Source of the DNA: Planctomycetota bacterium
GTDB taxonomy: Bacteria; Planctomycetota; GCA-002687715; CAIWVZ01
Reading direction: 5' to 3'
NCBI GenBank assembly: GCA_044222185.1
Contig: JBGANV010000001.1
Location: 1,216,001 to 1,280,000 of the forward strand
Length of the DNA stretch: 64,000 bases
Positions within the stretch are counted from its first letter, which is position 1; the number at the start of each line of letters is the position of its first letter. The position numbers and the translations under genes were made by a program. Positions 12,127 through 35,968 of this stretch are shown one piece after another. A model generated the notes under the pieces. That model saw only the letters and a program-made list of their open reading frames with translations. It was not told where the DNA came from and searched no databases.

Positions 12127-12138
12127 CGCGGGGCTCGC

Positions 12139-13557: not shown

Positions 13558-13570
13558 GCGCCCCTCGTTC

Positions 13571-13987: not shown

Positions 13988-16123
13988 ATGACGACTCCCC
14001 CCAGGATCGCCTCACGCCCGTTTGCCCCGTCGCCCGTCGAGATGGAAGGCCTCCGCCGGCTGGCGAGGCGCCTCGTCGACGACGACAACGACGCCGACGA
14101 CATCGTCCAGGAGTCGTTCCTCCTCGGACTTCGGCGCCGAAGCGCCACGGTTCTCAACCTGGGGGCCTGGCTGCGAGGCGTCGTTCGCAACAAAGCCCGC
14201 GAGTCACGGCGCGCAGCCCAGCGCCGTTTGGCGTCAGAACTGGCAGCTTCGCAAGGACCAAATCCAATGACTCCTCTGGACATCGCCGCACGGATGGACG
14301 TCCACGCCCGGCTTCTCGCCGCGATCGGCGCGCTGGCCGAGCCCTATCGGAGCTCCGTGTGGCTCCACTATGTCGAGGGCCGAACACCTGCTGAAATCGC
14401 CCAATCGTCAGGCAGGCCCGTCGAGACCGTACGAACGCAGATCAAGCGTGGAATCGCTCAGCTCCGTGACGCGCTCGACGCCGATCACGGCGGCGATCGC
14501 CAGGCGTGGGCCCTCTCGCTCGCGGCCTTCGCAGCGGCTGGGCCATCAGCCACGGCCCCAACGACTGCGGCGGCCGTGGGCATCGGAATGGGGCAGGTGC
14601 TGCTGGCAGCTTCCGTAGTGCTCGCCTTGACGCTCTCCGTACCGGGATCTCGGTGGATCGCGTCACCCACACCAGACCCCGCTCCCGCATCGATGCCGGG
14701 CGGCGACCCCGTCGCGCGCTCGGTCCCGGCGACGACTTCTGGCGCTTCAACTCCTGTGCCCGCGTCTTCGGACCGGGCCGCCCGCCAACGCATGGAACCG
14801 ATCCCGTGGAGCGAACCCTCGGCGGATTCGCGATCGAACCTCGAGATCGTCGAAGGTGAGTTCTCGTTCCATTACCAGCAGGGGTACTCGTTCGAGACTC
14901 AGTCGGTGGTGAACGACCTCGCGGATGCCGACCTCACGTTCGAATCCTGTGCCGGCGGAATCGCAAGCGTCACACTCAAGGCACCAGGAGGCACGATCAC
15001 GAACCTCGAGCGCCTCGGAACGCGCATTCCGAGCGTGAAGCGCGCAGCCGCACTGGCACGTGCGGTCGTTCGAGCCGAGACGAGCGCGTTTGGAGATCGG
15101 GAACAGGCCGGCGGCAACGACCGTAGTCCAAGCTCCGATGCGTTCCTCCTCAAGACTCGTCACGGGCAATGGGCCAGTCTTGCGATCGCATCACGCGCTG
15201 AAACCGGCGGGTGGACCACGAAACCCATCTCGATCCACTACGTCATGAGTCGCTCGACCGCCGTGTTTCGTGACGGAACCGGCGACCTCACGGTCGACGG
15301 CGTCGAGATCGACACTGGCGTTCTCACTCGGCTCGACCGGGAGATCCAGGACGCCGAGGAGCGCGCGCTCGCCCTACGGAGCGAGCCGATTCTGCTCCGC
15401 CTGCGTGAGTTGGACCGGTTCGCCGCACGTCTCCAACCGGAGATCGCGGCACGAGACGGCGCGGACGTTCGGGTCGCGGCGGTTCTCGATCGGGAGTTTG
15501 CCGCCCCTCTGGGGAACCGGGCGGCCTACATCGCGGCGACCTACAGCTTCGAGCACGGGACCCGCGACGACGAGGGCGCGACGCACAATGACTGGGACTT
15601 CGTGCTCCAACGCGAGATCACGGTCTGCACCGTCACCGATGACCACAGCGAGATCTGGGACCTGGGCGAGCTGAGTTACGCCGACGGACGCTCGGGCAAG
15701 GTGGCGCCCGCGCACGGGACCAGGACCCATTCCCCGATTCGCGGCCATCTTCTTGCGATCCACACCCTGGACGACGACTCGGATCTGTGGACGCTCCTGC
15801 GCGTCGAGGCCACCGTCCCCGGGGAATCGATGGTGTTCTCATATTCCGTCCTTCGGGACCCGTCCGCACTCTTGCGCTCCCTGTACGTCGCGGACGATGC
15901 ACTTCAAACACCCGAGGTGCGGATGCAGATCCGCGGTGGAGCCGGCGGCGGAAACCCCCACGTCGCCGCCCTCGACAGATCGACGAATGGCTACATCAGC
16001 TCTCTCGAATCGTCGCCCATGGAGGTCGACGGCGCCATCGACACCAGCGAGCGCCACAGGGCATTCGTCTCGGGCGGGCTCGTGCCGCTGGGGAAGGTGT
16101 TCATCATCGAGCGCGTGGAGTAA
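13988..16123 (+). CDS. ECF sigma factor fused to a TM helix and a large extracytoplasmic region
   Basis: sigma2 'DADDIVQESFL..AWLRGVVRN', sigma4 'LHYVEGRTPAEIA..VETVRTQIKRG', hydrophobic TM, then a long C-terminal region. Confidence 0.85.
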   Translation: MTTPPRIASRPFAPSPVEMEGLRRLARRLVDDDNDADDIVQESFLLGLRRRSATVLNLGAWLRGVVRNKARESRRAAQRRLASELAASQGPNPMTPLDIAARMDVHARLLAAIGALAEPYRSSVWLHYVEGRTPAEIAQSSGRPVETVRTQIKRGIAQLRDALDADHGGDRQAWALSLAAFAAAGPSATAPTTAAAVGIGMGQVLLAASVVLALTLSVPGSRWIASPTPDPAPASMPGGDPVARSVPATTSGASTPVPASSDRAARQRMEPIPWSEPSADSRSNLEIVEGEFSFHYQQGYSFETQSVVNDLADADLTFESCAGGIASVTLKAPGGTITNLERLGTRIPSVKRAAALARAVVRAETSAFGDREQAGGNDRSPSSDAFLLKTRHGQWASLAIASRAETGGWTTKPISIHYVMSRSTAVFRDGTGDLTVDGVEIDTGVLTRLDREIQDAEERALALRSEPILLRLRELDRFAARLQPEIAARDGADVRVAAVLDREFAAPLGNRAAYIAATYSFEHGTRDDEGATHNDWDFVLQREITVCTVTDDHSEIWDLGELSYADGRSGKVAPAHGTRTHSPIRGHLLAIHTLDDDSDLWTLLRVEATVPGESMVFSYSVLRDPSALLRSLYVADDALQTPEVRMQIRGGAGGGNPHVAALDRSTNGYISSLESSPMEVDGAIDTSERHRAFVSGGLVPLGKVFIIERVE

Positions 16124-16630
16124 CGCGCGAACGTGACGGGCGACTCGAACGGACACGGGGAGTTCAAGCTCGTCGTCGGGTTCTGCCCGATCGCACACAT
16201 CGCGGAAGCGTTGGACCCGACGACGCACGAGAAGACGTTGCGCTGGTTCTCCCTCGATCGCGGAAGTTCGAGCCTCGCGCCCAAGACCTCGGTTCGCGCC
16301 GAGATGACCGTCAACATCCCGATCCGTCGTGGCGACGAACCGAAGGTCTTCGTCGAGATCGCGAACTCGAGCTGGGCGGACGTCACGTTGAGCGGGCGGT
16401 TCGCTCCCGACGTCGCGAAACCGACGTCGACCACACAGCTGAAGTCCGGGCGGCAAGTGCTCAAACTCCTCGAGACCTTCCGCAATCGACACGAGGGCGA
16501 AACGCAGCCGACGCGCTCGCGAGTCCTCGACCCGAGTTGGACCGGCTCGCTGCGCCCGATCGTCGAAGCCATGCCCGAGGGTCCCTTCCGCACCGAACTG
16601 AGGTCCGCGCTGTCGTCGGACTCCCGCTGA
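16124..16630 (+). pseudogene. In-frame continuation of the ECF fusion protein beyond a single TAA
   Basis: Same frame as 13988..16123: ...GTG GAG TAA CGC GCG AAC GTG... No SD for an independent start. Confidence 0.6.
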
Positions 16631-16736
16631 GGGCTCCGGACGGCACCGCCCGCGGCGGCGCATGCCGTCCTCGCGGAACGTCCAGAACGTCCCGTCGATC
16701 GCTCGGGTTGATTCCCGCATAGGATGTCCGACGAAC

Positions 16737-21635: not shown

Positions 21636-22787
21636 TCAGCCCCCCGCGAGCTTCCCGAGCGACACGGGTCGCGTCGCTCCGGTGATCCGCGGCAGGTTCG
21701 ATGGACCGCAAAACAGGCGTTCGTTCCCGAGGACGGCGAACAGTAGCGCCTCCTTGGCGTCCGGGTCGATCCCCACCTCCGAAAGACTGCGAACCGGCGC
21801 GGGGGCCAGGGCCTCGCGGATCCCGTTCATCAGCGCCGCGTTGTGGACTCCGCCTCCGCTGGCAATCACCTGGCGGACCGAGTCGGCGCCGCCGGCGACC
21901 CATCCCAGGGCCCGCCGGATGCTCTCCCCCACGAGCCGTGTGTGTGATGCGAGCAGGTCGCGCCAGGAGATGGAGGGGAACCGCGCACGGATCGAGCGCA
22001 CGTAATCGCCGCCGAACGCCTCGCGGCCGGTCGTTTTCGGGGGCGACGCAAGGAAGTACGGGTGCCCGAGCAGGGCGTCCAGGACGGGTCCGTCGGCAGT
22101 ACCCGCCAGGGCCAGCCGTCCACCGGTGTCCTCCCGCTGGCGCCCCTCTGACGCCTCGGCCGCCAGAAGGTCCAGGGTGACGTTGCACGGCCCCACGTCG
22201 AACGCCGCGACCCCGTCGAGGCCTCCGGGGCACCAGGTCAGCGACGTGATGCCGCCGAGGTTGAGTGTCACCGTTCCGGGAGCATCGCCGAACAAGACGG
22301 CATCCAGGTACGGCATCAAGGGGGCCCCGGCGCCGCCGTGGGCGACGTCGGCAGCTCTGAAATCCCCGATGACAAGGCAGCCTGTCTCCGCCGCGATGAC
22401 GTCCAGGTCGGCAATCTGGAGGGTGGTGGTCGCCACCCCATCCGGCAAATGGCAGATCGTCTGTCCATGACTCGCCACCAGGTCGACGTCTCGGAGACCC
22501 ACGTGAGCCAGGCGCGCGACCTCGCCGGCGGCCGCCGCGAACCGCCGTCCGAGCTCGCGATTCCAACGGCAAACGTCCACGCACCCGACGTCAGGAGCCC
22601 GCAGCAGTGCGTCGCGCAGCTCTCGCTCGAACGGGACCATGGTGAACGCAAGAATCTCGTGGCGGATCCCCAGCCCGTGGCCGCGCACGCGAACGAGAAT
22701 CGCATCCACGCCGTCCATCGACGTTCCGCTGTTGAGCCCGACGATGAGCCGTGATTCCTTGTCCCTCGCACGCTGCCAGCGCTCCAT
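21636..22787 (-). CDS. anmK: Anhydro-N-acetylmuramic acid kinase
   Basis: 'GLNSGTSMDGVDA', 'SHGQT', 'DFRAADVAHGGAGAPL', 'NLGGI', 'FDVGP', 'PPKTTGRE', 'GGGVHN', 'KEALLFA'. SD GGAGGA. Confidence 0.95.
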   Translation of the reverse strand: MERWQRARDKESRLIVGLNSGTSMDGVDAILVRVRGHGLGIRHEILAFTMVPFERELRDALLRAPDVGCVDVCRWNRELGRRFAAAAGEVARLAHVGLRDVDLVASHGQTICHLPDGVATTTLQIADLDVIAAETGCLVIGDFRAADVAHGGAGAPLMPYLDAVLFGDAPGTVTLNLGGITSLTWCPGGLDGVAAFDVGPCNVTLDLLAAEASEGRQREDTGGRLALAGTADGPVLDALLGHPYFLASPPKTTGREAFGGDYVRSIRARFPSISWRDLLASHTRLVGESIRRALGWVAGGADSVRQVIASGGGVHNAALMNGIREALAPAPVRSLSEVGIDPDAKEALLFAVLGNERLFCGPSNLPRITGATRPVSLGKLAGG

Positions 22788-22870
22788 GGGTCCTCCGCCC
22801 CGACCTCGCGTCCGCGTCGGGGCCGGTATTGTAGAAGCGCCGGCGGCTCACACCGCCACGGAGAAAGTTC

Positions 22871-24226
22871 GTGTCAAAAGTCCTGATCGTCGATGACGAG
22901 AAGCCGATCCGCGACGCGGTGCGGATGATCCTGAAGTACGAGTCCATGGAGTGCGTCGATGCGGGTGACGCCCGATCGGCGCTGAAGCTCGTGGACGAGG
23001 ACCAGGAGATCGGAGTCGTTCTCTGCGACGTGAAGATGCCCGGCATGGACGGGCTCGAGTGCCTGGAAGCGATCAAGTCACGCCGGCCGGGGCTTCCGGT
23101 CATCATGGTTTCAGGACACGGCACCGTCGAAACGGCCGTCGAGGCCACGCGGAAGGGTGCCTTCGACTTCATCGAGAAGCCGCTCTCGCGCGATCGCCTG
23201 CTACTGACGCTGCGCAACGCCGCCGGAACCGAGAGCCTGCGGCGCGCGAACGAAACGCTTCGCGAGGAGCTGGCCGCCAGATTCAAGATCCTGGGCTCCT
23301 CCCCGCCGATCGTCGCCCTGCGCGAGACCATCAAGCGCGTGGCGCCGTCCGACGCCCGAGTCCTCATCACCGGTGAGCACGGGACCGGCAAGGAACTCGT
23401 CGCGCGCAACCTCCACCTGCTCTCGGCCCGCCACAACGAGCCGTTCGTCGACGTCAACTGCGCGGCGATTCCGAAGGAGCTCATCGAAAGCGAGTTGTTC
23501 GGCCACGAGAAGGGCGCGTTCACCGGCGCCGACAAGCAGAAGATCGGCACGTTCGAGCAAGCGAACGGTGGGACCATGTTCCTCGACGAGATCGGAGACA
23601 TGGACCTGGCGGCACAGGCAAAACTTCTGCGCGTGCTCGAGGAGAGCAAGGTTCAGCGCGTGGGCGGCGGCGCCCCGATCCCCGTCAACGTGCGACTCAT
23701 CGCCGCGACGAACAAGGATCTGGAGAAGGAAGCGAGCGAGAACACCTTCCGGGAAGACCTCTTCTACCGGCTGAACGTGATTCCCATAAAAGTCCCGCCC
23801 CTGCGGGAGCGGACCGAGGACATTCCTGAGATCTTCCAGCGGTACTTCGGGGACTACTGCCGCCGGTACCAGCGCGCGGGTCTCAAGCTCGAACCCGGGG
23901 TCATCGAAGAGCTGAAGCGCCTCCCCTGGCCCGGAAACGTCCGGGAGTTGCGCAATTTCGCCGAGCGGCTCGCGCTGCTGGGACCGGACCCGGCCATCAC
24001 GGTCGACACCGTCCGCCAGCTGGCCACGGTCAGAACGGCGTCCGACACCGACGTCTTCGCACTCGACAACTTCGAGGCCTTCAAGAACGCAGCCGAACAC
24101 GCCTACCTCGCGCGCAAGCTTCAGGAAAACGGCTGGAACATCAAACAGACGGCCGAGCGGCTCGGCATGCAGCGCAGCAACCTCTACAAGAAGATCGAGC
24201 GATACGACCTTCGTGGACCCGAGTGA
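22871..24226 (+). CDS. sigma54-dependent response regulator (NtrC/NtrX family)
   Basis: REC ('VLIVDDE', 'CDVKMPGMDG', 'EKP'), AAA+ ('GEHGTGKE', 'ESELFGHEKGAFTGA', 'FLDEIG', 'WPGNVREL'), Fis HTH. Confidence 0.95.
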   Translation: MSKVLIVDDEKPIRDAVRMILKYESMECVDAGDARSALKLVDEDQEIGVVLCDVKMPGMDGLECLEAIKSRRPGLPVIMVSGHGTVETAVEATRKGAFDFIEKPLSRDRLLLTLRNAAGTESLRRANETLREELAARFKILGSSPPIVALRETIKRVAPSDARVLITGEHGTGKELVARNLHLLSARHNEPFVDVNCAAIPKELIESELFGHEKGAFTGADKQKIGTFEQANGGTMFLDEIGDMDLAAQAKLLRVLEESKVQRVGGGAPIPVNVRLIAATNKDLEKEASENTFREDLFYRLNVIPIKVPPLRERTEDIPEIFQRYFGDYCRRYQRAGLKLEPGVIEELKRLPWPGNVRELRNFAERLALLGPDPAITVDTVRQLATVRTASDTDVFALDNFEAFKNAAEHAYLARKLQENGWNIKQTAERLGMQRSNLYKKIERYDLRGPE

Positions 24227-24292
24227 GGTCGGACCACGTACGAAGCGTTGCCAAAAAACTCCGTGACGCCTTGTCGCCGGCCGGGGGCGGGC

Positions 24293-24301
24293 TGATATAC
24301 T
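24293..24301 (+). promoter_or_regulatory. Extended -10 promoter of the ExbBD cluster
   Basis: TG-A-TATACT about 60 nt upstream of ATG 24364; GGAG SD. Confidence 0.55.
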
Positions 24302-24363
24302 GCCGCCCGCGATCCTCACCCCGCCAGGTGATCGCATTTCTTGGTCGGCCCCTGGAGTCTTAG

Positions 24364-26001
24364 ATGAACGAAGGCCACGAGCAGGCCCCCGTCCAGCATT
24401 CGCTTTCGGAGATCCTGCAAGACCACACGACCTTCGAGGACCGTGTTCAAAACATGGCACGAGGCGCACCGGTCCTGGTGATCGCCATCATCGTGCACGT
24501 CATCCTTGGCCTCGTACTCGGCATGGTCTACTTCCACGAGAAGGAGAAGGCCGCCGAAGCCGAGCACATGGACGTCGGTCAGGCGAACGCGATCGATACG
24601 ACCAAGATCGAGGAAAAGGCTGACGCGCCGAAGGAGATCGAGCGCACGGCCATCCCACAGGTCGACGAGAACGCGGTCACGGACGTCACGAACGATGACA
24701 GCTTCAACACTGTCACCGACGACACCGTGAACCCGTACGCACAGAACAACGAGCGCTTCGGCGTGTCCGAAGGCGTCGACGACGCGCCGGACAACCTGCT
24801 CACCATGAGCAGCGGCGGCAAGGGCCTCGCTGGCGCCATCGGCGTTGGCAACAGCGGCTCGGGCGCCGGTGGTGGTGCTCGCAAGGGCAGCCCGTTCGGT
24901 GGATCGCGTGTCAGCCGGCGCAACGCACAGTCGGCCCAGCTCCAGCAGACCGAGAAGGTCGTCATGGCCGGTCTCGAGTGGCTGAAGCGGCACCAGAGCC
25001 CGGACGGAAGCTGGGACTGCGACAACTTCGCCTCGAACTGCGACTCGAAGCTCGGGCCAGCGTGCTCGGGTCGCGGTCAGGCAACTTTCGACGCCGGTGT
25101 GTCCGGCCTCGCGCTCCTCGCCTTCCTCGGTGCCGGCTACGACAGCCAGCGGCCGGGCCCGTACCTCGAGACCGTGAAGAACGGGCTCAAGTACCTGAAG
25201 GGCATCCAGGACGCCCAGGGCTGCTTCGGCTCCCAGGGCGACTCGCGATTCACGTACGCGCATGCCTGCGCCACGCTGGCGATGTGCGAAGCGTACGCGT
25301 CGAGCAAGCAAGTTCCCTGGAAGCGCTCGGCGCAGAGCGGCGTCGACTTCATCAACCAGTGCCAGAACCCATACAAGGCGTGGCGCTACGGCATCAAGCC
25401 GGGCGACAACGACTCGTCGGTGACGGGCTGGATGCTCATGGCCCTGAAGTCGGCGAAGGATGCCGGCCTCCAGGTCAACGAGCGCACGATGAAGGACGGC
25501 CTCGCGTTCGTCGACTCGATGACGGACGAGGACACAGGGCGAACCGGGTACACGAAGAAGGGCGAGCCGCCCGTGCGTCCGGAAGGCGCGCAGGCCAAGT
25601 GGCCGGCTTCGGAGTCCGAAGCGCTGACCGCAGTGGCCATGTGCTCGCGCATCTTCACCGGGGCCGCCGACGGCAACCCGATGATGAAAGCTGGAGCCGA
25701 CCTGTTGTCGAAGCACCTGCCGGTCTGGAACGAAGCCAGCGGGTCGATCGACATGTACTACTGGTACTACGGCACGCTCGCCATGTTCCAGATGGGTGGC
25801 AACGACTGGGAGCGCTGGAACAAGGCGCTCAAGACCGTCGTCATCGACAACCAGGTCAAGGATGGCTGCACGAAGGGAAGCTGGGAACCGAAGGACCCGT
25901 GGTGCGATGAAGGCGGTCGAATCTACGCGACGGCCCTCATGACGCTCTGCCTCGAGGTCTACTACCGCTACCCCAAGGTGTTCGGCGCCACGAAGAAGTG
26001 A
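24364..26001 (+). CDS. Membrane-anchored prenyltransferase/squalene-oxidase-repeat (alpha/alpha barrel) protein
   Basis: N-terminal TM containing His, acidic and Gly-rich spacer, QW-like repeats 'GLEWLKRHQSPDGSW', 'GLKYLKGIQDAQGCF', 'DMYYWYYGT', 'GGRIYATAL'. Confidence 0.85.
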   Translation: MNEGHEQAPVQHSLSEILQDHTTFEDRVQNMARGAPVLVIAIIVHVILGLVLGMVYFHEKEKAAEAEHMDVGQANAIDTTKIEEKADAPKEIERTAIPQVDENAVTDVTNDDSFNTVTDDTVNPYAQNNERFGVSEGVDDAPDNLLTMSSGGKGLAGAIGVGNSGSGAGGGARKGSPFGGSRVSRRNAQSAQLQQTEKVVMAGLEWLKRHQSPDGSWDCDNFASNCDSKLGPACSGRGQATFDAGVSGLALLAFLGAGYDSQRPGPYLETVKNGLKYLKGIQDAQGCFGSQGDSRFTYAHACATLAMCEAYASSKQVPWKRSAQSGVDFINQCQNPYKAWRYGIKPGDNDSSVTGWMLMALKSAKDAGLQVNERTMKDGLAFVDSMTDEDTGRTGYTKKGEPPVRPEGAQAKWPASESEALTAVAMCSRIFTGAADGNPMMKAGADLLSKHLPVWNEASGSIDMYYWYYGTLAMFQMGGNDWERWNKALKTVVIDNQVKDGCTKGSWEPKDPWCDEGGRIYATALMTLCLEVYYRYPKVFGATKK

Positions 26002-26066
26002 GCGCGGCTGTCGGTTCTCGCCCTGCCAGGAACTAATCACCCCCACGGCGCTTCGTGGGGTAAGGG

Positions 26067-28925
26067 ATGTTTCTCATGCGATTCGCGTCCGGTGTGATTG
26101 CATCGGCGGCCGTCCTGATATTGACGTCCGCTTCGCCGGCCCAGCACGGGACGGCACGTGACTACAAAGACTTTGCGAAGGCCCTCTCCGAGAACACCTA
26201 CTTCGACCTCGCCAAGGAGGTCGTGAACGAAGGACTCGGCGCCCTACAGGGCGGGGACGACAAGGCGATCCTCGAATACGCGCTGTGCGAGATCTCGGCC
26301 AATGAGGCCTTTCGCACGCCCAAGCCCGAGGAGCGCCAGAAGAACCTCGAAGGCGCGACCAAGGCCTACGAGGACTACCTCAAGAAGTACCCGAGCAGCC
26401 CGGTCCTTTCCGAGGCGCGCTACCAGATCTCCGAGCTGCTTCGCAGCGCCGGCGAAGCCGTCGCGCGGCAGCTGAAGGACGAGAAGGACGCGACGAAGAA
26501 GGACCAGCTTCGCGAGAAGGGGCTGAACTACTTCACGAAGGCCGAGGCGTTCGCCACGCAGCGCGTGGAAGAGCTGAAGGCGAAGCAGAACAAGTCCGAC
26601 ATCGAGAAGGACGAGTTCAAGGCGCTCCGCTTCGCGATCCCGGTCATCGCCTATTCGAAGGTCACGCTGTACGACGATCGCAACAGCCTCAACGCGCAGG
26701 TCGCGTTGAAGGCGGCCAAGGAAGGGTTCGAGGACTTCGACCTGGAGTACACGGGCGAGCTCCTCTCCTTCGAGGCGCGCCGCTACCTCTTCCTCATCGC
26801 CGTCGACGAGAAGCGGAACGACGAGGCCGAAGAGCTCATCGCCTTCTCGTGCGACCAGCTCGCCGAGGCCGCGCAGAACCAGCCTGAGATCCTTCAGGAC
26901 GAGTCGACGCGCGACGTCATGATCTCCAACTTCCACGACATGGCGCAGTTCCTCACGCAGACGAAGGCGCCGCCCGAAGGCAAGAAGGCCATCGAGCGCG
27001 TCGAGACGCTGCTGAAGGCCATCCCCCGCCTCATCACGATCCGCGAGGGTCGCGAGTGTCTGCTCATCCTCGCCCGCGCCTATGCAGCCGAGGGCCAGGC
27101 GGACAAAGGCAAGAAGCTCGCGGACGACATCTTCAAGGCGGATCCGTCGGGCCCGACGAGCGCTGCCGCGGATGAATTGCGCAAGGGTGGCAAGGGATTC
27201 GCCACGAGCGGTGGCGGTGACCTCTCGACGATCCTCGTCCAGCTCCAGGGATGCGTTGAGCGCAAGGACACCGCGACGGCCGAGAAACTGCTCGGCCAGG
27301 TGTTCGCGCGCGACGTGACCAAGGCGAAGATCGATGACCTCGCCGAGGCGCTCTTCCTCGGAGCGAGCACGTACTTCGAACGCGGCAACTACGTCGACGC
27401 GTCCGTGTGCTTCGGGCTGATCGTCGAGAACTACCCGCAAACGAAGCGCGCTCCCCCGGCCGCGAGCAACGCCGCCATGGCGTACGGCCGCATGGCCGGC
27501 ATCGAGAAGAAGAACGGCTCGGGCTTCGAGTTCTGGAAGAACAAGAACAAGGAAGCCATCGCCGATCTGATCCGCCGCTATCCGCAATCGCCGGAAGCCG
27601 CGGGCGTCACCTTCTTCGCCGCACTCGACGCCGAAGCCGAGGGCAAGTTGCCGGAGGCGATCGACCTCTTCGGCAAGGTCCCGGGCGGCAACGTGAATTA
27701 CCCCGAGGCGCAGTTCCGCATCGGTAAGTGCGCGACCGACATCGCGACACAAGCCGAGAACCGCGATCAGAAGGACGAAGCCAAGAAGCGCTTCACGCAA
27801 GCCGTTTCAGGCTTCGAGAACGCCATCACTTCGTACGCAAAGTCCGCGGCCGACACGCTGAACAAGGCGGACATCGCCAAGGCGCGACGCGGCAAGACGG
27901 ACTCCCAGCTCATGCTGAGCCAGATCTACCTGCGTGACGACTTCAAGCAGGTCGACAAGGCGCTGGGACTCCTCGACAACGCGGAAGCGGACAACAAGGA
28001 CGACAAGAACAAGGTCGCCCAGATCTGGAACTTCCGCGTCCGCGCCTTCGTGAAGCAGGGCCAGGGCACCAAGGCCGCCGACCTCTTCAAGCAGTGGTTG
28101 AAGCAGCAGACCGACGCCGGCGCCGTCGCCCCGACCGCCATCAGCGTCGCAGCGGCCGTCGACAAGGAGGCTGGCGAAAAGGTCAAGGCGAACGACAAGT
28201 CGGCCAACGAGCTGTACCGAACCGCAGCCGAGATGTACACGCTCGCCATCGACTCGGCGGGCAGGGGCGGTACGGCGAAGGTGGATTGGTCGCAGGTCGG
28301 TGGTCGTCTCCTGGCCATCGCCGGGCGTCTGTCGGGCCTCCCCGACGATCTCTCGCTGTCGAACATCGACCCCAACGCGAAGCTCGCGGAACAGGCGATG
28401 ATCGAGAAGGCGAAGAAGGCCTACGACTTCGCCAGCGAGGACAAGACCGGCACCGTCAACGTGGAGCGGCTGAGAAACACGGCCCGTTGCCGCGCGCTCA
28501 CGGGCGACTGGATCGGCGCGATCAGCGCGTTGACCGACATCACGACCAAGCAGCCGCTCTTCATGCAGGACGGGAAGCTCGACGCGGAACGCCTCAAGCA
28601 GAATCCGTCGCTCCCCGCCATCAACCTGGACCTCGCGGTCGCCTACATTCGCGCCGGCAAGTCGGACAAGAGCCAGTACTCGTCGGCTTCCGACATCGCG
28701 AGGAACCTGATCGCCAACTCCGAGCAAGGCAAGAAGATGTACTGGGAGGCCAGGTACCTCTACCTGCTGGCCATGCTCGAATCGGGCAACGTCTCCGAAC
28801 TCGACGGCGCGCTCGACTCGCTCGAGAGAACCAACCCGGAGGCGGACAAGAACGAGTACGGCATCAAGGCGAAGATCGACCAGATCCGCGCCATCCGGAA
28901 CAAGAAAGCAGTCATCACGAAGTAG
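26067..28925 (+). CDS. Large exported TPR/alpha-solenoid protein
   Basis: Signal peptide; TPR-like units ('YEDYLKKYPSSP..EARY', 'IVENYPQTKRAP', 'LIRRYPQSPEA'). Confidence 0.8.
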   Translation: MFLMRFASGVIASAAVLILTSASPAQHGTARDYKDFAKALSENTYFDLAKEVVNEGLGALQGGDDKAILEYALCEISANEAFRTPKPEERQKNLEGATKAYEDYLKKYPSSPVLSEARYQISELLRSAGEAVARQLKDEKDATKKDQLREKGLNYFTKAEAFATQRVEELKAKQNKSDIEKDEFKALRFAIPVIAYSKVTLYDDRNSLNAQVALKAAKEGFEDFDLEYTGELLSFEARRYLFLIAVDEKRNDEAEELIAFSCDQLAEAAQNQPEILQDESTRDVMISNFHDMAQFLTQTKAPPEGKKAIERVETLLKAIPRLITIREGRECLLILARAYAAEGQADKGKKLADDIFKADPSGPTSAAADELRKGGKGFATSGGGDLSTILVQLQGCVERKDTATAEKLLGQVFARDVTKAKIDDLAEALFLGASTYFERGNYVDASVCFGLIVENYPQTKRAPPAASNAAMAYGRMAGIEKKNGSGFEFWKNKNKEAIADLIRRYPQSPEAAGVTFFAALDAEAEGKLPEAIDLFGKVPGGNVNYPEAQFRIGKCATDIATQAENRDQKDEAKKRFTQAVSGFENAITSYAKSAADTLNKADIAKARRGKTDSQLMLSQIYLRDDFKQVDKALGLLDNAEADNKDDKNKVAQIWNFRVRAFVKQGQGTKAADLFKQWLKQQTDAGAVAPTAISVAAAVDKEAGEKVKANDKSANELYRTAAEMYTLAIDSAGRGGTAKVDWSQVGGRLLAIAGRLSGLPDDLSLSNIDPNAKLAEQAMIEKAKKAYDFASEDKTGTVNVERLRNTARCRALTGDWIGAISALTDITTKQPLFMQDGKLDAERLKQNPSLPAINLDLAVAYIRAGKSDKSQYSSASDIARNLIANSEQGKKMYWEARYLYLLAMLESGNVSELDGALDSLERTNPEADKNEYGIKAKIDQIRAIRNKKAVITK

Positions 28926-28967
28926 GCAGGTCGCTGAACACGACCTCCAGCACGAGGAATCAGAACG

Positions 28968-30086
28968 ATGAACGTTCGTGGCTTCAATCAACTCATGATC
29001 GCGATGGCGCTCGTGACGCTCTCGAGCCGGGTATTCGCTCAGAACGACACGATCACCCTCAAGGACAACTCGACGAAACAGGGCACCGTCCAGGAATGGG
29101 ACTACCGCGGCGTGAAGGTCGCGGTCGGCGGATCCGGGACGACGACGATCAAGGCCGATGACGTGCTCGGCGTCGAATTCGCGGCAGCCCCGAAGGACTT
29201 CAAGGAAGGCAAGGACGACCTCGCCGGCGGGAAGTTCGACGAGGCGGTCGCCAAGTTCCAGGCACTCATCGACAACGCGAAGGCCCGTGCGGCGATCCGT
29301 CAGGAGTCGCACTGGTACAAGGCGCAGGCCTTGAAGGGCTCTGGCAAGAACGACGAGAGCGTGGCCGCAATGAAGGCCATGATCGCCGACGGTCAGTTCC
29401 CGTCGTCGCACTACCTGGAGCAGATCCACGACCTCGTCCCCACCATGCTGGCGCAGGCTGGCAAAGGTGCGGAGGCCATCACCTTCATCGAGGGTGAGGA
29501 GTCCCGGATCAACAAGCTTCCCGAATCGGGCGGGCTGCTCGAGGGCCTGAAGCTCGGCCGCGCGCGCGCCTACCTCGCATCGAACGACCTGGCGAAGGCC
29601 AAGTCCGAGGCAACTGCGCTCGCTGCGACGACTGGGGCCCGCGCCTCGGAGGCCAAGGTCATGCTCGGCACCATCGCGCTGGCCGAGAAGAACCCGACCG
29701 AGGCCGAGAAGCTCTTCCGCGACGCCCTGAAGGTCGTGACCCGCTCCCGCGAGCGGGCTGCCTGCTACAACGGCCTCGGCGCCGTTCTCCAGCAGCGCGG
29801 CAAGGAGACGAGCAAGCCCGACCTCCTCCGCGAGGCCCTCCTCAACTACCTCCGCACGGCCCTGATGTTCGCGCCCGCCCCCGGAGAACCGACTGGCGAG
29901 CACGAGAACGGGCTCTACAATGCCGCCAACTGCTTCCAACTGCTGGGGGACGTGTCGAGCGACAAGGACGTACAGAAGCGCAACTACGGTCGAGCGGTCG
30001 AGATGTACCGCCGTTTCGTCGCAGAGTATCCGCAGTCCCCACTCAAGGCCGACGCGCAGTCGCGCCTCTCCAAGCTCGGCGGTTGA
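28968..30086 (+). CDS. Exported TPR protein with a small N-terminal beta domain
   Basis: Signal peptide ending 'VFAQ', 'DTITLKDNSTKQGTV', TPR repeats, 'FVAEYPQSP..ADAQSRL'. Confidence 0.8.
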   Translation: MNVRGFNQLMIAMALVTLSSRVFAQNDTITLKDNSTKQGTVQEWDYRGVKVAVGGSGTTTIKADDVLGVEFAAAPKDFKEGKDDLAGGKFDEAVAKFQALIDNAKARAAIRQESHWYKAQALKGSGKNDESVAAMKAMIADGQFPSSHYLEQIHDLVPTMLAQAGKGAEAITFIEGEESRINKLPESGGLLEGLKLGRARAYLASNDLAKAKSEATALAATTGARASEAKVMLGTIALAEKNPTEAEKLFRDALKVVTRSRERAACYNGLGAVLQQRGKETSKPDLLREALLNYLRTALMFAPAPGEPTGEHENGLYNAANCFQLLGDVSSDKDVQKRNYGRAVEMYRRFVAEYPQSPLKADAQSRLSKLGG

Positions 30087-30136
30087 TCGAGCGAACACCC
30101 ATACAGGAACTCTCATTCTCAGGAGCAACCGGAACC

Positions 30137-30853
30137 ATGAAGCACCGATTCGCGATGATGTGTCTCGTCACTGTGCTGTTCGCCGGAGCCGTCGCGGCCC
30201 CGGCACTCGCCGCTGAGGAAGCGACCGGCAAGCACAAGAGCGTCCTCGAACTGTTCGAGACCACTGGCTGGGTCGGTTGGTTGATGGTCGCCACGTCCAT
30301 CATCGGCACCGTGCTCTGCATCCAGAACGTCGTCGAGATCCGGATGGACAAGCTCGCTCCGCCGGACCTGACGAAGGAGATCGAAGACGCCATCAACGAG
30401 GGCGACCTCGATCGCGCGCTCGACGTCGCCATGTCGAGCCGTTGCTACTTCGGCCAGATCATGGGCGGCGGGCTCATGCTGAAGGAAGCCGGCTACGAGC
30501 AGATGGTGAACGGCATGGAGCAGGTGGCCGCCGAAGAGGCGTTCAAGCTCAACGCCAAGATCTCCAACCTCTCCCTCATCGGAAACGTCGCCCCGCTGCT
30601 CGGACTCCTCGGAACGGTGACGGGAATGATCTCGTCGTTCCAGGTCATCGCGCAGAAGGCCGCCCCGACGCCTGCCGACCTCGCGTCGGGCGTGTACGAG
30701 TCGCTCGTCAACACGACCATGGGTCTGTTTCTCGCCATCGTCTTCCTCACGCTGTTCTTCTTCATGAACAACCGCGTCAAGAAGATGTCGCTGAACTGCA
30801 ACCTGATGGCCGTCGAAATGCTCAAGAACACGGGCCTTCACAAGCACGCCTGA
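30137..30853 (+). CDS. exbB: MotA/TolQ/ExbB proton-channel protein
   Basis: 'IGNVAPLLGLLGTVTGMISSF', 'LASGVYESLVNTTMGL'. Confidence 0.92.
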   Translation: MKHRFAMMCLVTVLFAGAVAAPALAAEEATGKHKSVLELFETTGWVGWLMVATSIIGTVLCIQNVVEIRMDKLAPPDLTKEIEDAINEGDLDRALDVAMSSRCYFGQIMGGGLMLKEAGYEQMVNGMEQVAAEEAFKLNAKISNLSLIGNVAPLLGLLGTVTGMISSFQVIAQKAAPTPADLASGVYESLVNTTMGLFLAIVFLTLFFFMNNRVKKMSLNCNLMAVEMLKNTGLHKHA

Positions 30854-30874
30854 TCGCAGGCGTGGGAGCCATCC

Positions 30875-31441
30875 ATGGCGTTTCATGACATCGAAGTCGA
30901 GCAGGACGTGGCGCCGAACCTGGTGCCGATGGTCGACATCATGTTCCTGCTGCTCCTCTTCTTCATGCTCAACGCTGACATGAGTCAGCGTGAGCTGGAG
31001 GAGATCGTTCCGCCCGTCGCGAAGGCCGCTCAGGAGGACAAGCCGAATGCGGGTGACACCTTCCGCATCACGGTCAACATCCACCATCTGAGCGAGGCCC
31101 AGGGGTCAACCTGCGCGATCCACAAGATCGGGCAGGTCTGCCGCGACGACGGTCACTGGCGCATCGCGGTTTCCGGTCGCTCCTACGAGTTCAACGCGGA
31201 AGGCCAGAAGCGGCTCGTTCAGCACCTGACCGAGCTCGCTCGCAAGGGCAAGACGAACCCGAACGACCCGAACTCGATCTCGGAGACCAAGATGCTGGTG
31301 CGTGCCGACCGGTTGGCCCCCTACGGGTACATCCAGAAGGCGATGGAGGCTGCGGCATTCGCCAAGCTCTACAAGATCGAAGTCGGGGCGGGAATCCCGA
31401 AAGAGGTCTTGAACGAGCGTGCCGCCGCGCAGCCGAAGTGA
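30875..31441 (+). CDS. exbD: ExbD/TolR protein 1
   Basis: 'NLVPMVDIMFLLLLFFM' (conserved Asp), 'VRADRLAPYG'. Confidence 0.9.
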   Translation: MAFHDIEVEQDVAPNLVPMVDIMFLLLLFFMLNADMSQRELEEIVPPVAKAAQEDKPNAGDTFRITVNIHHLSEAQGSTCAIHKIGQVCRDDGHWRIAVSGRSYEFNAEGQKRLVQHLTELARKGKTNPNDPNSISETKMLVRADRLAPYGYIQKAMEAAAFAKLYKIEVGAGIPKEVLNERAAAQPK

Positions 31442-31447
31442 CGCCGA

Positions 31448-31475
31448 CGGGCGCGGGGTTCGAGCCCCGTGCCCG
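31448..31475 (+). other. Intercistronic GC-rich hairpin
   Basis: CGGGCGCGGGG-ttcgag-CCCCGTGCCCG, 11-bp stem, no U tract. Confidence 0.6.
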
Positions 31476-31646
31476 CGCGACCCGTGGTGACGAATCGAGC
31501 CACTTGACGCGTTCCGGCGCGTCGACAGTGGTGACACAAACAACCTGCTGCATGAGGACTGCGGCCCCCGGGGCCAGGCCGTGAGTCCAACACGGGATCA
31601 CCCGCGCGAGCGGGCGAAACCGTGACAACTGTCGAGGAGACGTGAC

Positions 31647-32117
31647 ATGGCTGGTTCTACCGGCAAAGACAATCCGGTCGGCATCAACGTGACGCCGCTC
31701 GTGGACATCATCTTCTGCCTGTGCCTCTTCTTCATGTGCTCGCTCAAGTTCAAGCCACTTGACGGCAAGATGGACTCCTGGCTGCCGAAGGACAAAGGTC
31801 CCGGCCCGGCAACCGCGAACCCGACGCTCGACGAGATCCGCGTGGTGTTGTCGTTCAGCTCGGAGAAGAACCAGCTCGAGCGGTTCTTCGGACAGCGCCC
31901 GATCGAGAGCGGCGAGAAGGGTGACGCCCTCCTCGCCAAGCTGATCAAGGACCAGTACACCTCGTACCAGTCCCTCGGGAAAACGGACATCCCGGTGATC
32001 ATCGACTCCGGCCCCAAGGTGCCATGGCAGTACGTCATCGACGTGATGAACATGTGCCAGGAGCAACGGATCAACAAGATCGAGTTCGCGTTCGGCACCC
32101 AGCACAAAGGTGGGTAG
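31647..32117 (+). CDS. exbD: ExbD/TolR protein 2
   Basis: 'INVTPLVDIIFCLCLFFM', 'VIIDSGPKVPWQYVIDVMN'. SD GAGGAG. Confidence 0.9.
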   Translation: MAGSTGKDNPVGINVTPLVDIIFCLCLFFMCSLKFKPLDGKMDSWLPKDKGPGPATANPTLDEIRVVLSFSSEKNQLERFFGQRPIESGEKGDALLAKLIKDQYTSYQSLGKTDIPVIIDSGPKVPWQYVIDVMNMCQEQRINKIEFAFGTQHKGG

Positions 32118-32141
32118 GACGCGAAGGACCTGACGCGTCCC

Positions 32142-33023
32142 ATGCCCTACATGCGCGCGAGGCTCCGCCACCCGCTCTACCGTCCAATGGGGACGGAGCC
32201 GCCCAAACCCTTTCTGAAGACTCCTGAAGGCAAGCGCATCACCATCTTCGGGTTTGGATTCGCCGCGCTGATCGCAACGCTCCTGAGCGGCGTGAAACAC
32301 CCGTCGGCTCAGGAGACACGGCAAACCGACTCGCAGCCGACGTCGCGTCCCGTGACGGTGCTCGCGCATCCCCCCGCGACGTTCATCCCGGCCTCGGTGC
32401 TTCACGTCATCCGGGCCGTCCAGGACGAGACCGAAGAACCGTCCGAGGCGGCGCGGGCCGCGGTGCTGAAGTGGCTCTACCCCACCGCGGGGCCCGAGTC
32501 CGGGCCCACGGAGCTCCCACCAACTCTGAATCCGACGGAACTGGCGATCGACGAGGCCCGTGCGTTTCCGGACGCGTTCCGCGGCGGTCACGTGCGTACG
32601 CGCGGCCAGGTCATTCGGGTGCGAACCTACGACTCGGACCGCGTCCCCGGCGAGCGGATCTATCGCGGATACCTCGTCCAGGACCCGCGCGCGGCCGGCG
32701 TGATGTTCGACACGATCAACCCGCTTCCGGGTGACAAGTTCGAGAAGCTCGACCCCATCGAGATCGAGGGCGTATTCGTCCAGAACATTCGCTACGAAGC
32801 GGTGAACGGCAAGTTCCAAACGGTCCCCTACATCGTCGCCACGTCGATGAGGGTCGCGCGGCCTGAGACGCCGCACAGTTTGTGGCAGAACCCACTCGTG
32901 CTCCTCATGATGGTTGCCATCGTCCTGTTCGGATTGGCAGCCTGGCTCATAATCCAGCGAAGACTCCGAAGGGACATCCCGCCGCCGGGCTTCCGCGCGC
33001 GTCGTCCCGGTCCCGGGAGATGA
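32142..33023 (+). CDS. Hypothetical two-TM protein with a periplasmic OB-fold-like domain
   Basis: TMs at both ends; 'FRGGHVRTRGQV', 'DPIEIEGVF'. Confidence 0.7.
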   Translation: MPYMRARLRHPLYRPMGTEPPKPFLKTPEGKRITIFGFGFAALIATLLSGVKHPSAQETRQTDSQPTSRPVTVLAHPPATFIPASVLHVIRAVQDETEEPSEAARAAVLKWLYPTAGPESGPTELPPTLNPTELAIDEARAFPDAFRGGHVRTRGQVIRVRTYDSDRVPGERIYRGYLVQDPRAAGVMFDTINPLPGDKFEKLDPIEIEGVFVQNIRYEAVNGKFQTVPYIVATSMRVARPETPHSLWQNPLVLLMMVAIVLFGLAAWLIIQRRLRRDIPPPGFRARRPGPGR

Positions 33024-34606
33024 AAGACATCATGCAAACGTGCAACCTTTGTGGCTCAGCGATTTCCCCCGAGATTGGACCGCCGGTTCTTGCGCAGCAA
33101 GGACAGGTCGTCTGCCAACCCTGCTGGAAGAAGTCCGGCGCCGCGGCCCCGGCCGCACAGCGGCGCCCCGTGACGGCCTCGCGCACCGCCGCCGTCACCG
33201 GGTCGGCGCGTCCGGCGACCGGTTCGTCGCGCCGGACCGGCGCAACGCCAGCTCCGTCGGCAGCACGCGCGGGCCGCACCACCGGTTCCTCGCGGACCGC
33301 GGCGCCCGCACCCCGCGCGGCCGAGGCCGCGGAGGAAGGCGGCGAAACGAACGTCGCGCGTCACATGACGACGCGGTCACAGGAGATCATCCAGGTCGGC
33401 TCGACCGGCCTCGGCCGTCACGCCCAGAAGATCGTGATGATCGTCATGGGCGTCCTCGTGATCGCGGCCGGCATCCTGTTCATGGTGAACAAGAACAAGA
33501 AGGCCGCCGAGGCGGAGGAAACCGCTCGCATCCTGAAGGAAGCCGATGACGGCATCTCTGCGATCGTGACGGCGGTCCAGAAGTACCCCGAGGACTTCAA
33601 GCGTCAGCTCGAAGTGGTCTCGAGCGTCCGCGACGCCGTGAACAAGCTCCAGGACGCCGATCACAAGGGCAAGCTGATCAACCTGGAGAACGAGATCCGC
33701 ACGAAGCAGACCGCGGCCAAGACGTCACAGGAGGCCATGGACCTCCTGACCTCGGCGGAAGCGGACGTGCAGGATCCGAACAAGCTCGACTCGGTCAAGG
33801 CCAAGATGAACTCGCTCGAGATCCGCGCCAACACCATGGGCAAGGAGTACGGCGAGCGCGTGAAGAAGATCAAAGAGGCCTACAGCCTCATGAGCGTGAA
33901 GAAGTTCGCCGACACTGCCCGTGCCACGAAGGACGGGGACATCTCGAGCGCGCTCAACGCCTACGACACCGCGATCCGTTCGATCTACGACCTCGTCGAG
34001 AAGCTGCCGAAGCCGCCGCCCGAGATGATCGAGATCTTCAAGGCTGTCCTCGGAGAGTCCGACGCCCTCGTCGAGAAGCTCGTGACGCCTGAGTACGAGG
34101 CGAAGATCCCCGAGCGCGACCTCCTCTCCCCCAAGGAGAAGTCCGTTTGGGGCAACAGCGATGGCATCAAGTGGGAGTTGAAGGGCAAGGAGATGGTGGT
34201 CGAAGGCGTCGAAGTCCCCGGCCGAAAGATCGTCGGCGTGTTCTCCGCGATCCCGCCCGTGGCGGAGATGTGGCAGGACATCATCCTGGACGTCGAGTTC
34301 ACGATCACCGCCGGCGACAGCTTCACGTCGATGTACCGGTACCTGCCTGGAAAGAAGGCCTATGAACTGGGGTACAAGGTCGACCCGAACACGGGCTTCC
34401 AACTGAACAAGAACTACCACCAGATCATCCGCGTCGTCGGAAGCTCGTTCACCCAGAAGGAGTCGGGCAATCCGGATCAGTCCGACAAGCTCGGGTTCTC
34501 CGTCAGCCGCACGGGCGGGATCGGCTTCGCACTGAAGCCCGGCACCAAGATGGTCTTCTCGACCTTCAAGGTGAAGGTCCTCCGCACGACGGCCGGAGTG
34601 AAGTGA
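33020..34606 (+). CDS. Zn-finger / low-complexity linker / TM / periplasmic helical plus beta-sandwich protein
   Basis: 'CNLC..CQPC', R/T/S/A-rich linker, TM 'IVMIVMGVLVIAAGILFMV'. ATGA overlap with the previous gene. Confidence 0.75.
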   Translation: MKDIMQTCNLCGSAISPEIGPPVLAQQGQVVCQPCWKKSGAAAPAAQRRPVTASRTAAVTGSARPATGSSRRTGATPAPSAARAGRTTGSSRTAAPAPRAAEAAEEGGETNVARHMTTRSQEIIQVGSTGLGRHAQKIVMIVMGVLVIAAGILFMVNKNKKAAEAEETARILKEADDGISAIVTAVQKYPEDFKRQLEVVSSVRDAVNKLQDADHKGKLINLENEIRTKQTAAKTSQEAMDLLTSAEADVQDPNKLDSVKAKMNSLEIRANTMGKEYGERVKKIKEAYSLMSVKKFADTARATKDGDISSALNAYDTAIRSIYDLVEKLPKPPPEMIEIFKAVLGESDALVEKLVTPEYEAKIPERDLLSPKEKSVWGNSDGIKWELKGKEMVVEGVEVPGRKIVGVFSAIPPVAEMWQDIILDVEFTITAGDSFTSMYRYLPGKKAYELGYKVDPNTGFQLNKNYHQIIRVVGSSFTQKESGNPDQSDKLGFSVSRTGGIGFALKPGTKMVFSTFKVKVLRTTAGVK

Positions 34607-34607
34607 G

Positions 34608-35639
34608 ATGCCGGCAGCTGCACCCTCGAAAGTCACGCCCGTCCAGTGGATGGTCGTCTGCGGAGTCGGCGTCCTGGTGCTCGTCGGCGGAGGATGGGTC
34701 ACCTACAAGATGATCATCGATCCGCCGCCGAAGATCGTCGAGAAGCCCTTCGTTCCGCCGGACCTGAAGATCAAGCGAAACCTCGCGCCCGAGAGCCAGG
34801 TGGCGCTCGCTCCGAAGCCGAAGCGGCTCTTCTATCAGTTCTTCGAGGCCGTGGGCGCCAACGATCGCAAGACGGTCGTGAAGTGCTGCGAGATCACCGA
34901 GGACAAGATCGACCTCATCCTCACGGAGGAGCGAGTCGCGATCATGAAGCTCGCTCGCGAGGGCCAGAAGTTCGCGATCGAGAAGGAAGAGATCAAGGAC
35001 GACACGGCGACCTACCAGGTCATGTTCCAGAACGTCAAAGGTCTGGACGTGATGGAGCTCCTGCTCACCATGAAGAAGAAGGGTGGGCCGGAGGACTGGC
35101 AGATCACGGACTTCCAGGACAAGTGGATGGCGGCCTCGGGGCACGTCGCCGAGAACAAGTTCGTCGCACTCGGCGCCGATCGAAAGTTCGCCATCGCGCC
35201 CAAGGTCGAGCGTGACTCGTTCAAGAAGATCCCCGAGGGTGAGCCGACCACCCTCGACTGGTTCCCGGAGACGACGGACGCCCAGAAGTCCGACATCGAG
35301 AAGCACCTGAAGGCGCTCGAGGACGAGAACAACCCCGCTCGCGCGACGGCCGCGTCCCAAGCGCTCATCCAGATGGGCAAGCTCCCGATCCCCCGCCTCT
35401 TGACCGAGCTCGGCAAGCTCGACCCCAAGAAGGAAGACGACAACAAGCGCGCCAACACGATCGACCGGACGCTCGCGGCCCTCACCGACCAGGAGATGGG
35501 ATACAACGTCAGCGAGATGAGCGAGCTCATCCCGCCGCTCGAAGCGCGCCGTCGCGCGATCCGTCGCTGGTTCGGTTGGTGGAAGCTCCACTCCGCCGAT
35601 CCGCTGCCCAAGCGCAACGCGCCCGCTGACGAGAAGTAG
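34608..35639 (+). CDS. Membrane-anchored hypothetical protein (NTF2-like plus HEAT-like)
   Basis: N-terminal TM; 'FFEAVGANDRK..EEIKDDTATYQV..MKKK..DWQIT'; helical C-terminus. Starts 1 nt after the upstream stop. Confidence 0.7.
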   Translation: MPAAAPSKVTPVQWMVVCGVGVLVLVGGGWVTYKMIIDPPPKIVEKPFVPPDLKIKRNLAPESQVALAPKPKRLFYQFFEAVGANDRKTVVKCCEITEDKIDLILTEERVAIMKLAREGQKFAIEKEEIKDDTATYQVMFQNVKGLDVMELLLTMKKKGGPEDWQITDFQDKWMAASGHVAENKFVALGADRKFAIAPKVERDSFKKIPEGEPTTLDWFPETTDAQKSDIEKHLKALEDENNPARATAASQALIQMGKLPIPRLLTELGKLDPKKEDDNKRANTIDRTLAALTDQEMGYNVSEMSELIPPLEARRRAIRRWFGWWKLHSADPLPKRNAPADEK

Positions 35640-35952: not shown

Positions 35953-35968
35953 CGGCACGGGCATTGCA
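35953..35968 (+). promoter_or_regulatory. sigma54 (-24/-12) promoter
   Basis: CGGCACGGGCATTGCA has GG-N10-GC spacing and closely matches TGGCACG-N4-TTGCW. Confidence 0.65.

Follow-up and report, generated by a model that had tools for sequence, protein, structure and literature searches.

What connects a protein carrying the label 'prenyltransferase' to an ExbB-ExbD motor? The question is raised by a gene at positions 24364 to 26001 of a 64,000-nucleotide stretch of a Planctomycetota bacterium genome (assembly GCA_044222185.1, contig JBGANV010000001.1, positions 1,216,001 to 1,280,000 of the forward strand), called the window here. Ton and Tol are the textbook routes that carry inner-membrane energy to the outer envelope of Gram-negative bacteria, and a first interpretation made from the letters alone (the sequence-only reading) had taken the protein for the missing TonB equivalent and not a terpene enzyme. 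A proton-driven motor is encoded beside it, which suggests that Planctomycetota have a class of envelope force transducers not described before: the protein is probably a TonB/TolA-class transducer with a new head that is coupled to its own ExbB-ExbD-ExbD motor. It has the architecture of a transducer and a conserved anchor that resembles those of TonB proteins, and its family is tied to motor genes in two operon types and by domain fusions.

The protein consists of a short N-terminus, one membrane helix, a long spacer and a helical barrel.

24364..26001, + strand: TonB/TolA-like protein of 545 amino acids with an (alpha/alpha)6 barrel head, ATG start
24364..24471, + strand: cytoplasmic N-terminus, residues 1-36, ending in R33-G-A-P36 (63-sequence alignment)
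24472..24534, + strand: SHLS-type membrane helix, residues 37-57, with Ala41-x3-His45-x6-Leu52 (motif, model and hhalign)
24535..24933, + strand: periplasmic spacer, residues 58-190, acidic over 58-135 and Gly-rich over 136-190 (composition and low model confidence)
24934..25998, + strand: (alpha/alpha)6 barrel, residues 191-545, with QW-like repeats and Cys234, Cys287 and Cys529 (model, fold search and Cys conservation)

The helix at residues 37-57 reads VLVIAIIVHVILGLVLGMVYF, and the His45 codon is CAC at 24496-24498. The motif in full is A41-x3-H45-x6-L52-x3-Y56, with Ser absent at the fourth position. The acidic part of the spacer contains 13% E and 12% D and has a net charge of -12, and the Gly-rich part contains 27% G. 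Spacer length is similar among 98 homologs, with a median of 126 residues (range 120-154) between the end of the motif and the barrel. An AlphaFold2 model calculated from the 63-sequence alignment had a mean predicted local distance difference test score (pLDDT) of 78.7. The model has a confident helix at residues 37-67, scores below 50 over residues 71-85, 93-101 and 103-179, which make up most of the spacer, and a helical domain over approximately residues 182-537 in which 10-residue blocks mostly exceed 90. Two QW-like repeats were located by regular expression (LEWLKRHQSPDGSW at 204 and LKYLKGIQDAQGCF at 275). The barrel contains 11 Cys, and Cys234, Cys287 and Cys529 are conserved in 61-62 of the 63 aligned sequences. 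The D-x-D-D motif of cyclases occurs nowhere in the 545 residues and is present in 4/63 homologs at non-conserved sites. The single N-terminal helix with AxxxH, the acidic and then Gly-rich disordered spacer of ~130 residues, and the Cys-containing QW-repeat barrel without DxDD are all as the sequence-only reading had described them. Arg or Lys ahead of the helix (column 33 is R or K in 52/63 sequences), the acidic stretch behind it and the signal peptides of barrel paralogs predict a periplasmic, not a cytoplasmic, barrel.

The anchor motif of TonB and TolA is defined as Ser-x3-His-x6-Leu-x3-Ser in the part of a cryo-EM study of the E. coli Ton and Tol motors that was available (PMC12215075). 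The same text has the Ser and His contact helix 1 of ExbB/TolQ and describes the Leu and the final Ser as less conserved. P-x4-[S/A]-x3-H was found in 98 of the 120 best homologs (S in 67 and A in 31), and the conservation of the His on which the sequence-only reading had staked its proposal is borne out. Leu is present at H+7 in 65/98 of the motif-bearing homologs and Ser at the fourth position in 16/98. Most of the 22/120 homologs that lack it are fusions, forms with a signal peptide or fragments truncated at the N-terminus, and only four keep the helix without the His, so that the motif is found in 98 of 102 intact anchors. The 63-sequence alignment has His45 in 60 sequences, S (41) or A (22) at position 41 and Pro36 in all 63, and Leu in the Leu52 column in 40. 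The motif is retained among sequences down to ~40% identity and in a second, very different architecture described below (18/18), which is hard to explain without selection on contact with a motor.

The resemblance to TonB extends over the N-terminal region. A profile built from 96 N-terminal sequences of the family was compared by hhalign with the same region of 14 TonB_C proteins from the phylum; the probability was 92.7% (E 4.2e-7, 38 columns), part of which is by construction because both sequence sets were excised using the motif. The TonB set came from 20 fetched loci: the filter found no usable anchor in 6 of them, and masked residues excluded a seventh. A-x3-H is also present in the helix of the genome's own TonB_C protein. 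The 545-residue protein did not match TonB_C (PF03544) at E up to 0.01, and the tolA_full model was matched only weakly (E 0.0048, 16.2 bits, cut-off 59.45), within residues 38-100, which hold no more than the helix and the part that follows. A strict genome-wide scan for [S/A]xxxH-x6-hydrophobic within an uncharged hydrophobic 21-mer returned 6 matches among 3509 coding-filtered open reading frames (ORFs), under a filter so strict that the canonical TonB and a large barrel protein of the same genome escaped it. Two of the six are the window protein and its 63% identical paralog.

Control hhalign comparisons with two ExbD N-terminal profiles returned probabilities of 3.9% and 0.4%. These values bear on the alternative that the helix is a rotor-type partner inserted in the ExbB pore like that of ExbD or TolR, instead of docking outside. 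Some proteins do fuse ExbD-like domains to barrels, and a rotor-type helix in the pore has been proposed for a second family of vWA proteins that co-occurs with tolQ alone (PMC12204202, available text). The window helix has no Asp, however; the family conserves a His with S/A four residues earlier in place of the ExbD-type Asp, and the cluster already holds two complete ExbD genes with the invariant Asp. We rejected this alternative as highly improbable.

The gene stands in a run of same-strand genes that encodes a motor and several envelope proteins.

22871..24226, + strand: NtrC-type response regulator with receiver, sigma-54 AAA+ and Fis helix-turn-helix domains (Sigma54_activat E 1.3e-72, Response_reg 1.1e-29, HTH_8 1e-9)
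26067..28925, + strand: 952-residue TPR protein with a signal-peptide-like N-terminus (TPR families; YbgF/CpoB model at 43.2 bits, below the cut-off of 90.1)
28968..30086, + strand: 372-residue TPR protein with a signal-peptide-like N-terminus (TPR families)
30083..30853, + strand: ExbB/TolQ-family motor subunit (PF01618 E 2.8e-25)
30875..31441, + strand: ExbD/TolR paralog 1, 188 residues (PF02472 E 5.6e-16; membrane-helix Asp21 invariant in 31 sequences)
31647..32117, + strand: ExbD/TolR paralog 2, 156 residues (PF02472 E 2.7e-13; membrane-helix Asp20 invariant in 33 sequences)
32142..33023, + strand: 293-residue membrane protein, p293 (no Pfam or NCBIfam match; homolog in related clusters)
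33020..34606, + strand: 528-residue bitopic protein, p574 (model pLDDT 85.3; Foldseek)
34608..35639, + strand: 343-residue protein with an N-terminal membrane helix, last gene of the same-strand run (ORF list; weak HEAT-like match)

The best NCBIfam matches of the window ExbB and ExbDs are tolQ and tolR, all below cut-off. Orthologs of the second ExbD were found in 17 of 201 Planctomycetota genomes sampled, and 18 loci were retrieved from the 16 genomes other than that of the window. A barrel-family gene is present in the cluster at 10 of these loci (9 genomes), three loci are cut by a contig end and five have none. The full order NtrC, barrel, TPR, TPR, ExbB, ExbD, ExbD, p293, p574 recurs in L010 and L013, L010, L012, L013 and L168 all have an NtrC-like gene ahead of the ortholog, and the gene for the 952-residue TPR protein is kept beside the barrel gene in related loci. 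Eight of the 10 cluster barrel genes encode a helix with [S/A]xxxH.

A second operon type links the same barrel to a motor by a different route. The window's own genome contains it at locus L088 (C15:358000-377999), where the minus strand (8742-16702) encodes a 1062-residue TPR protein, ExbB, ExbD and a 1229-residue protein. The large protein begins with a helix and a PD40 repeat; a second helix and a third (SLLVH) follow, then ~500 disordered residues and, at the C terminus, a barrel that belongs to this family. Its N-terminal 380 residues match 35/201 genomes of the sample. Besides the window's own genome, 16/20 fetched loci have ExbB, ExbD and then a protein of 1100-1400 residues with a terminal barrel; the other four comprise one early contig end, one barrel in a separate ORF, one locus where no motor was found and one with no barrel. 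The third helix carries [S/A]xxxH in 18/18 large proteins, and the upstream TPR gene is kept in 18/20 loci. The barrel protein of this operon occupies the usual tonB position. A 1229-residue subtilase with two P-domains comes after the L088 operon, and such a downstream protease is not conserved. ExbBs of the large-protein operon retain A-I-P in helix 3 in 19/20 cases.

Domain fusions join the barrel to the same partners. ExbD-like periplasmic domains are fused to it in P0034, in P0028 and in a paralog from the window's own genome (L094:9520-11592, PF02472 E 3.4e-9), and P0103 fuses the barrel to the C-terminal part of p574 (BLASTP E 2e-28). The L094 paralog (minus strand, on C7) is provisionally 690 residues long, with the ExbD-like domains before the barrel; a longer frame of 913 residues contains one in-frame TGA. 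The genome holds 14 barrel matches, which include three with TonB-like anchors (the window protein, the C4 paralog and the L088 protein), this ExbD fusion and several signal-peptide forms.

The label attached to the barrel has a narrow basis. PF13243 was matched at 28.5 bits (cut-off 26.1) and only within residues 192-289, and the word 'prenyltransferase', which the sequence-only reading had set in doubt, goes back to this marginal match. NCBIfam cyclase models remained far below their cut-offs (TIGR01787 at 31.8 against 322.7 bits, TIGR01507 at 28.3 against 431.1 bits). Public homologs, all from Planctomycetota metagenome bins, are named 'terpene cyclase/mutase family protein' or 'prenyltransferase/squalene oxidase repeat-containing protein', and a large set of proteins of the phylum probably bears these labels wrongly. 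The barrel was compared by VIA-align with 48,161 chains. The top match was 8paj_A, a single-domain myxobacterial cyclase-like protein (Z 27.7, root mean square deviation 2.8 Å over 289 residues), followed by drimenyl diphosphate synthase (8zg0_A, Z 26.9), squalene-hopene cyclase (SHC; 1gsz_A, 26.5) and an oxidosqualene cyclase (24.4). Cellobiose 2-epimerase (Z 24.2) and GH76 enzymes (~24) came close behind, and Foldseek agreed. The cyclase domains score only slightly above the sugar epimerases and GH76 enzymes, so the fold names no function. Lower matches were the complement thioester domain of C4Adg (1hzf_A, Z 18.5, rank 46) and a prenyltransferase beta subunit (18.2). The thioester domain (TED) of alpha-2-macroglobulin, which the sequence-only reading had named beside SHC for comparison, was rejected as an identity for the barrel: C[G/L]EQ is the thioester motif of alpha-2-macroglobulin and complement domains, and no C[GL]EQ is present in any of the 63 sequences.

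These matches speak for a different function, that of an enzyme anchored in the membrane and working in the periplasm, which would be terpenoid-cyclase-like or one of the glycan-active (alpha/alpha)6 enzymes; its helix would be a mere signal anchor, and the neighbouring ExbBD would serve something else. The nearest folds are enzyme domains, the family profile matches SHC at E 4.5e-10, many polar and aromatic residues besides the three Cys are invariant or nearly so, and most family members do not lie beside a motor, with many paralogs being simple secreted forms. The SHC alignment is confined to SHC residues 394-591, the QW-repeat region, however, and we take the catalytic motif of SHC to lie before it; the lack of D-x-D-D and the scores of the cyclase models also argue against a cyclase. 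A plain anchor would not retain P-x4-S/A-x3-H in nearly all intact copies, nor would it resemble TonB anchors, and the two conserved operon types and the ExbD fusions bind the barrel to the motor. We consider such a motor-independent enzyme unlikely, and the earlier statement that the protein is not a terpene enzyme is likely correct but unproven, the fold being closest to class II cyclases. Enzyme and transducer are compatible functions, in that the head could be an enzyme that is positioned by the motor.

Several observations, in addition to the circularity of the hhalign comparison and the TonB loci lost from it, weigh against a motor-coupled transducer. The His is replaced by Ile, Leu or Val in P0009, P0016, P0019 and P0027, homologs of the window's own clade, and two barrel genes that remain in the ExbBD cluster encode Ile (L170) or Asn (L180) at this position. 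Asn can reportedly replace His20 of E. coli TonB, a result attributed to Swayne and Postle in 2011. ExbB lies within 10 kb in only 2/78 of the closest GTDB loci (L010 and L013), and the C4 paralog (63% identical) lies away from any motor. The barrel fold is an enzyme fold, and the near-invariance of three Cys would fit a catalytic or metal-binding site. A strand after the helix, the D-box or motor-box, binds ExbD/TolR in TonB-type proteins as defined in the available text of PMC10907165; a strict alternating D-box-like pattern follows the helix in 18/98 homologs against 25.8 expected from shuffles, with no enrichment, and Pro-flanked alternating stretches are seen after the helix in some family members. 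The Pro of ExbB helix 3 has been linked to TonB sensing by cryo-EM (PMC12215075, available text), and the ExbBs paired with N-terminally anchored barrel proteins have A-I-V without it; the Pro is likewise absent from the ExbB of the genome's canonical Ton locus.

Two further comparisons were neutral. The ExbB alignments covered the window gene (30083-30853) and loci L168-L185 and L129-L147. E. coli ExbB is described as having Ser-x3-Trp in helix 1 (PMC12215075, available text); no aligned ExbB has Trp at S+4, and this check is uninformative because the Trp is also missing from the ExbB of the genome's Ton locus. A complex prediction for ExbD1 (40-188), ExbD2 (38-156) and residues 58-135 of the window protein scored 0.00 in both runs, which were made without controls and speak neither for nor against binding.

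The His substitutions and the copies without a motor could also be taken to mean that the protein works without energy coupling, as a static tether or as a scaffold such as one for the TPR proteins, and that its motif and gene order are inherited leftovers. The His is dispensable in these natural variants, including L170, which is still in the cluster, and orphan copies have no adjoining motor. Retention of the motif across distant sequences and across both architectures argues otherwise, and the orphan copies have a parallel, since E. coli tonB is itself unlinked to exbBD, as is established knowledge. A static tether therefore appears quite improbable, and the transducer with its own motor is preferred.

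The genome sets a limit on what this transducer replaces. In its 7.08 Mb (93.8% complete), TonB_C and the TonB-dependent receptor were each matched once and MotA/ExbB six times. The single canonical Ton locus encodes the receptor, ExbB, ExbD, a TonB_C protein (TonB_C at C14:414989-415216) and a TPR protein, and TonB_C is present in 141/201 genomes of the sample. With a canonical TonB locus in the same genome, the window protein is an additional transducer with its own motor and not a substitute for TonB. The proposal of a TonB/TolA-type force transducer thus keeps its anchor, spacer, non-TonB head and ExbB-ExbD-ExbD linkage and loses the part that made the protein the missing TonB. Tol-Pal models scored below cut-off in this genome (TolB 88.6 against 343 bits, Pal 47.6 against 125), and TolA_C had no match.

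We infer the docking on ExbB, the transmission of force and the nature of the barrel's ligand as follows. The N-terminal helix, with Ala41, His45 and Leu52 on one face, would dock on the outside of the ExbB pentamer encoded downstream, in which the two different ExbD paralogs would form the proton-conducting rotor. The acidic and Gly-rich spacer of ~130 residues would span the periplasm, and the motor would then pull on, or signal to, a wall or outer-membrane partner bound by the barrel. Accessory roles may fall to the two secreted TPR proteins and to the lectin-like membrane protein. The task is more likely Tol-like, in envelope or glycan handling, than nutrient import, since the genome's only TonB-dependent receptor has its own TonB, and a role in the envelope or with glycans is also suggested by the CpoB-like TPRs, the lectin-like partner and the sister-operon propeller. 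A broader proposal is tentative: these proteins may form a third structural class of motor-coupled periplasmic transducers in Planctomycetota, beside those headed by TonB_C or TolA_C and those headed by vWA, with a toroid head that holds on to a glycan, a wall polymer or a partner in the outer membrane. TolQR-like motors, CpoB-like TPRs and the lectin-like protein, joined in the second operon type by a TolB-like propeller, might combine with them into an envelope machine driven by the proton motive force that replaces the Tol-Pal system undetected in this genome. The hypothesis is directly testable because the motif, the motor and the partner genes are all defined.

Known systems share some of these features and differ in others. 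TonB (PF03544) has in common with the window protein a single N-in helix with S/A-x3-H-x6-L on one face and Pro ahead, a long non-globular periplasmic spacer, a globular C-terminal head, linkage to exbB/exbD and a matching anchor profile. The TonB head is the ~80-residue TonB_C domain rather than a barrel of ~355 residues, its spacer is Pro-rich rather than acidic and Gly-rich, and the window motor differs in having two different ExbD genes and no TonB-dependent receptor nearby. TolA and Tol-Pal share the anchor motif, the TolQ/TolR-type motor and YbgF/CpoB-like TPR proteins in the operon, and the PD40 (TolB-like) repeat is present in the second operon type, whereas the window protein lacks the TolA C-terminal domain. 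SHC and the class II terpene cyclases share the (alpha/alpha)6 barrel, the QW-like repeats, Z scores of 24-28 and the profile match; SHC has two barrels, whereas the window protein has one, without DxDD, predicted to be periplasmic and on a TonB-like tether.

The closest published precedent is the set of vWA-headed transducers reported in 2025. These proteins have an SHLS helix and adjoin TPR-tolQ-tolR-tolR genes in the PVC (Planctomycetes, Verrucomicrobia, Chlamydiae) group (Williams-Jones et al. 2025, PMC12204202, available text). Their head is a vWA fold, whereas that of the window protein is an (alpha/alpha)6 toroid, and the vWA gene lies downstream of the tolR pair, whereas the window gene lies upstream of the TPR genes. 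The words toroid, prenyl and cyclase do not occur in the main text of PMC12204202 as available, the supplements of which might list such proteins, and no link between a squalene-cyclase-like or prenyltransferase-like domain and TonB, TolQ or ExbB was found among the papers listed by full-text searches. The 2025 paper argues that more transducers await discovery (PMC12204202, available text). The barrel family would add another head type, whose two operon designs are conserved across the Planctomycetota, where the biology of the envelope is a matter of continuing debate. Outside the window, the same genome encodes a protein at C1:1918958-1921087 (+ strand) with an FHA-like N-terminus, a P-x4-A-x3-H helix, a Gly-rich linker and a vWA domain with the DxTGS metal-site motif. 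From its sequence, this protein looks like the vWA-headed transducers of PMC12204202; no ExbB match lies near it.

Relatives of the barrel are numerous. The homolog search scored 1558/8000 candidates at E up to 0.001, and 576/650 pattern-matched stretches of species genomes encode a barrel relative. At most of the 78 closest loci, the barrel gene follows mfd and a gene for a SurA-like peptidyl-prolyl isomerase, without a motor, and further barrel paralogs come after it. L015, L034 and ~30 more loci share this neighbourhood, where one barrel paralog carries a PEGA domain.

No sigma-54 -24/-12 site (TGGCAC-N5-TTGC, up to 2 mismatches) was found in 24227-24363, upstream of the barrel gene, and sigma-54-like sites across the window number 55 against 48 expected, no more than chance. 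No sigma-70-like site and no + strand terminator-like site was detected in 22500-36500. The 205-bp gap at 31442-31646 between the two ExbD genes is the only long gap of the cluster.

The bitopic protein p574 was modelled with a cytoplasmic zinc-ribbon-like N-terminus (two Cys pairs), a membrane helix, a long helical bundle in the periplasm and a beta-sandwich, for which Foldseek returned DUF1080 and legume-lectin jelly rolls (E 5e-7 to 1e-5). For the C-terminal part, the ESM Atlas matches to unnamed PVC clusters had been borderline (0.90) and PF06439 a weak lead, and the later fold search on this part agreed with a lectin-like jelly roll. The protein has 179 representatives in a library of 1.84 billion proteins and belongs to no Pfam family. 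Elsewhere in the genome, two short MotA/ExbB-family genes (L092, C15:298760; L093, C4:26755) have no adjoining ExbD; one comes directly after a CobN-type chelatase gene and the other before an ApbE/DUF2271 gene.

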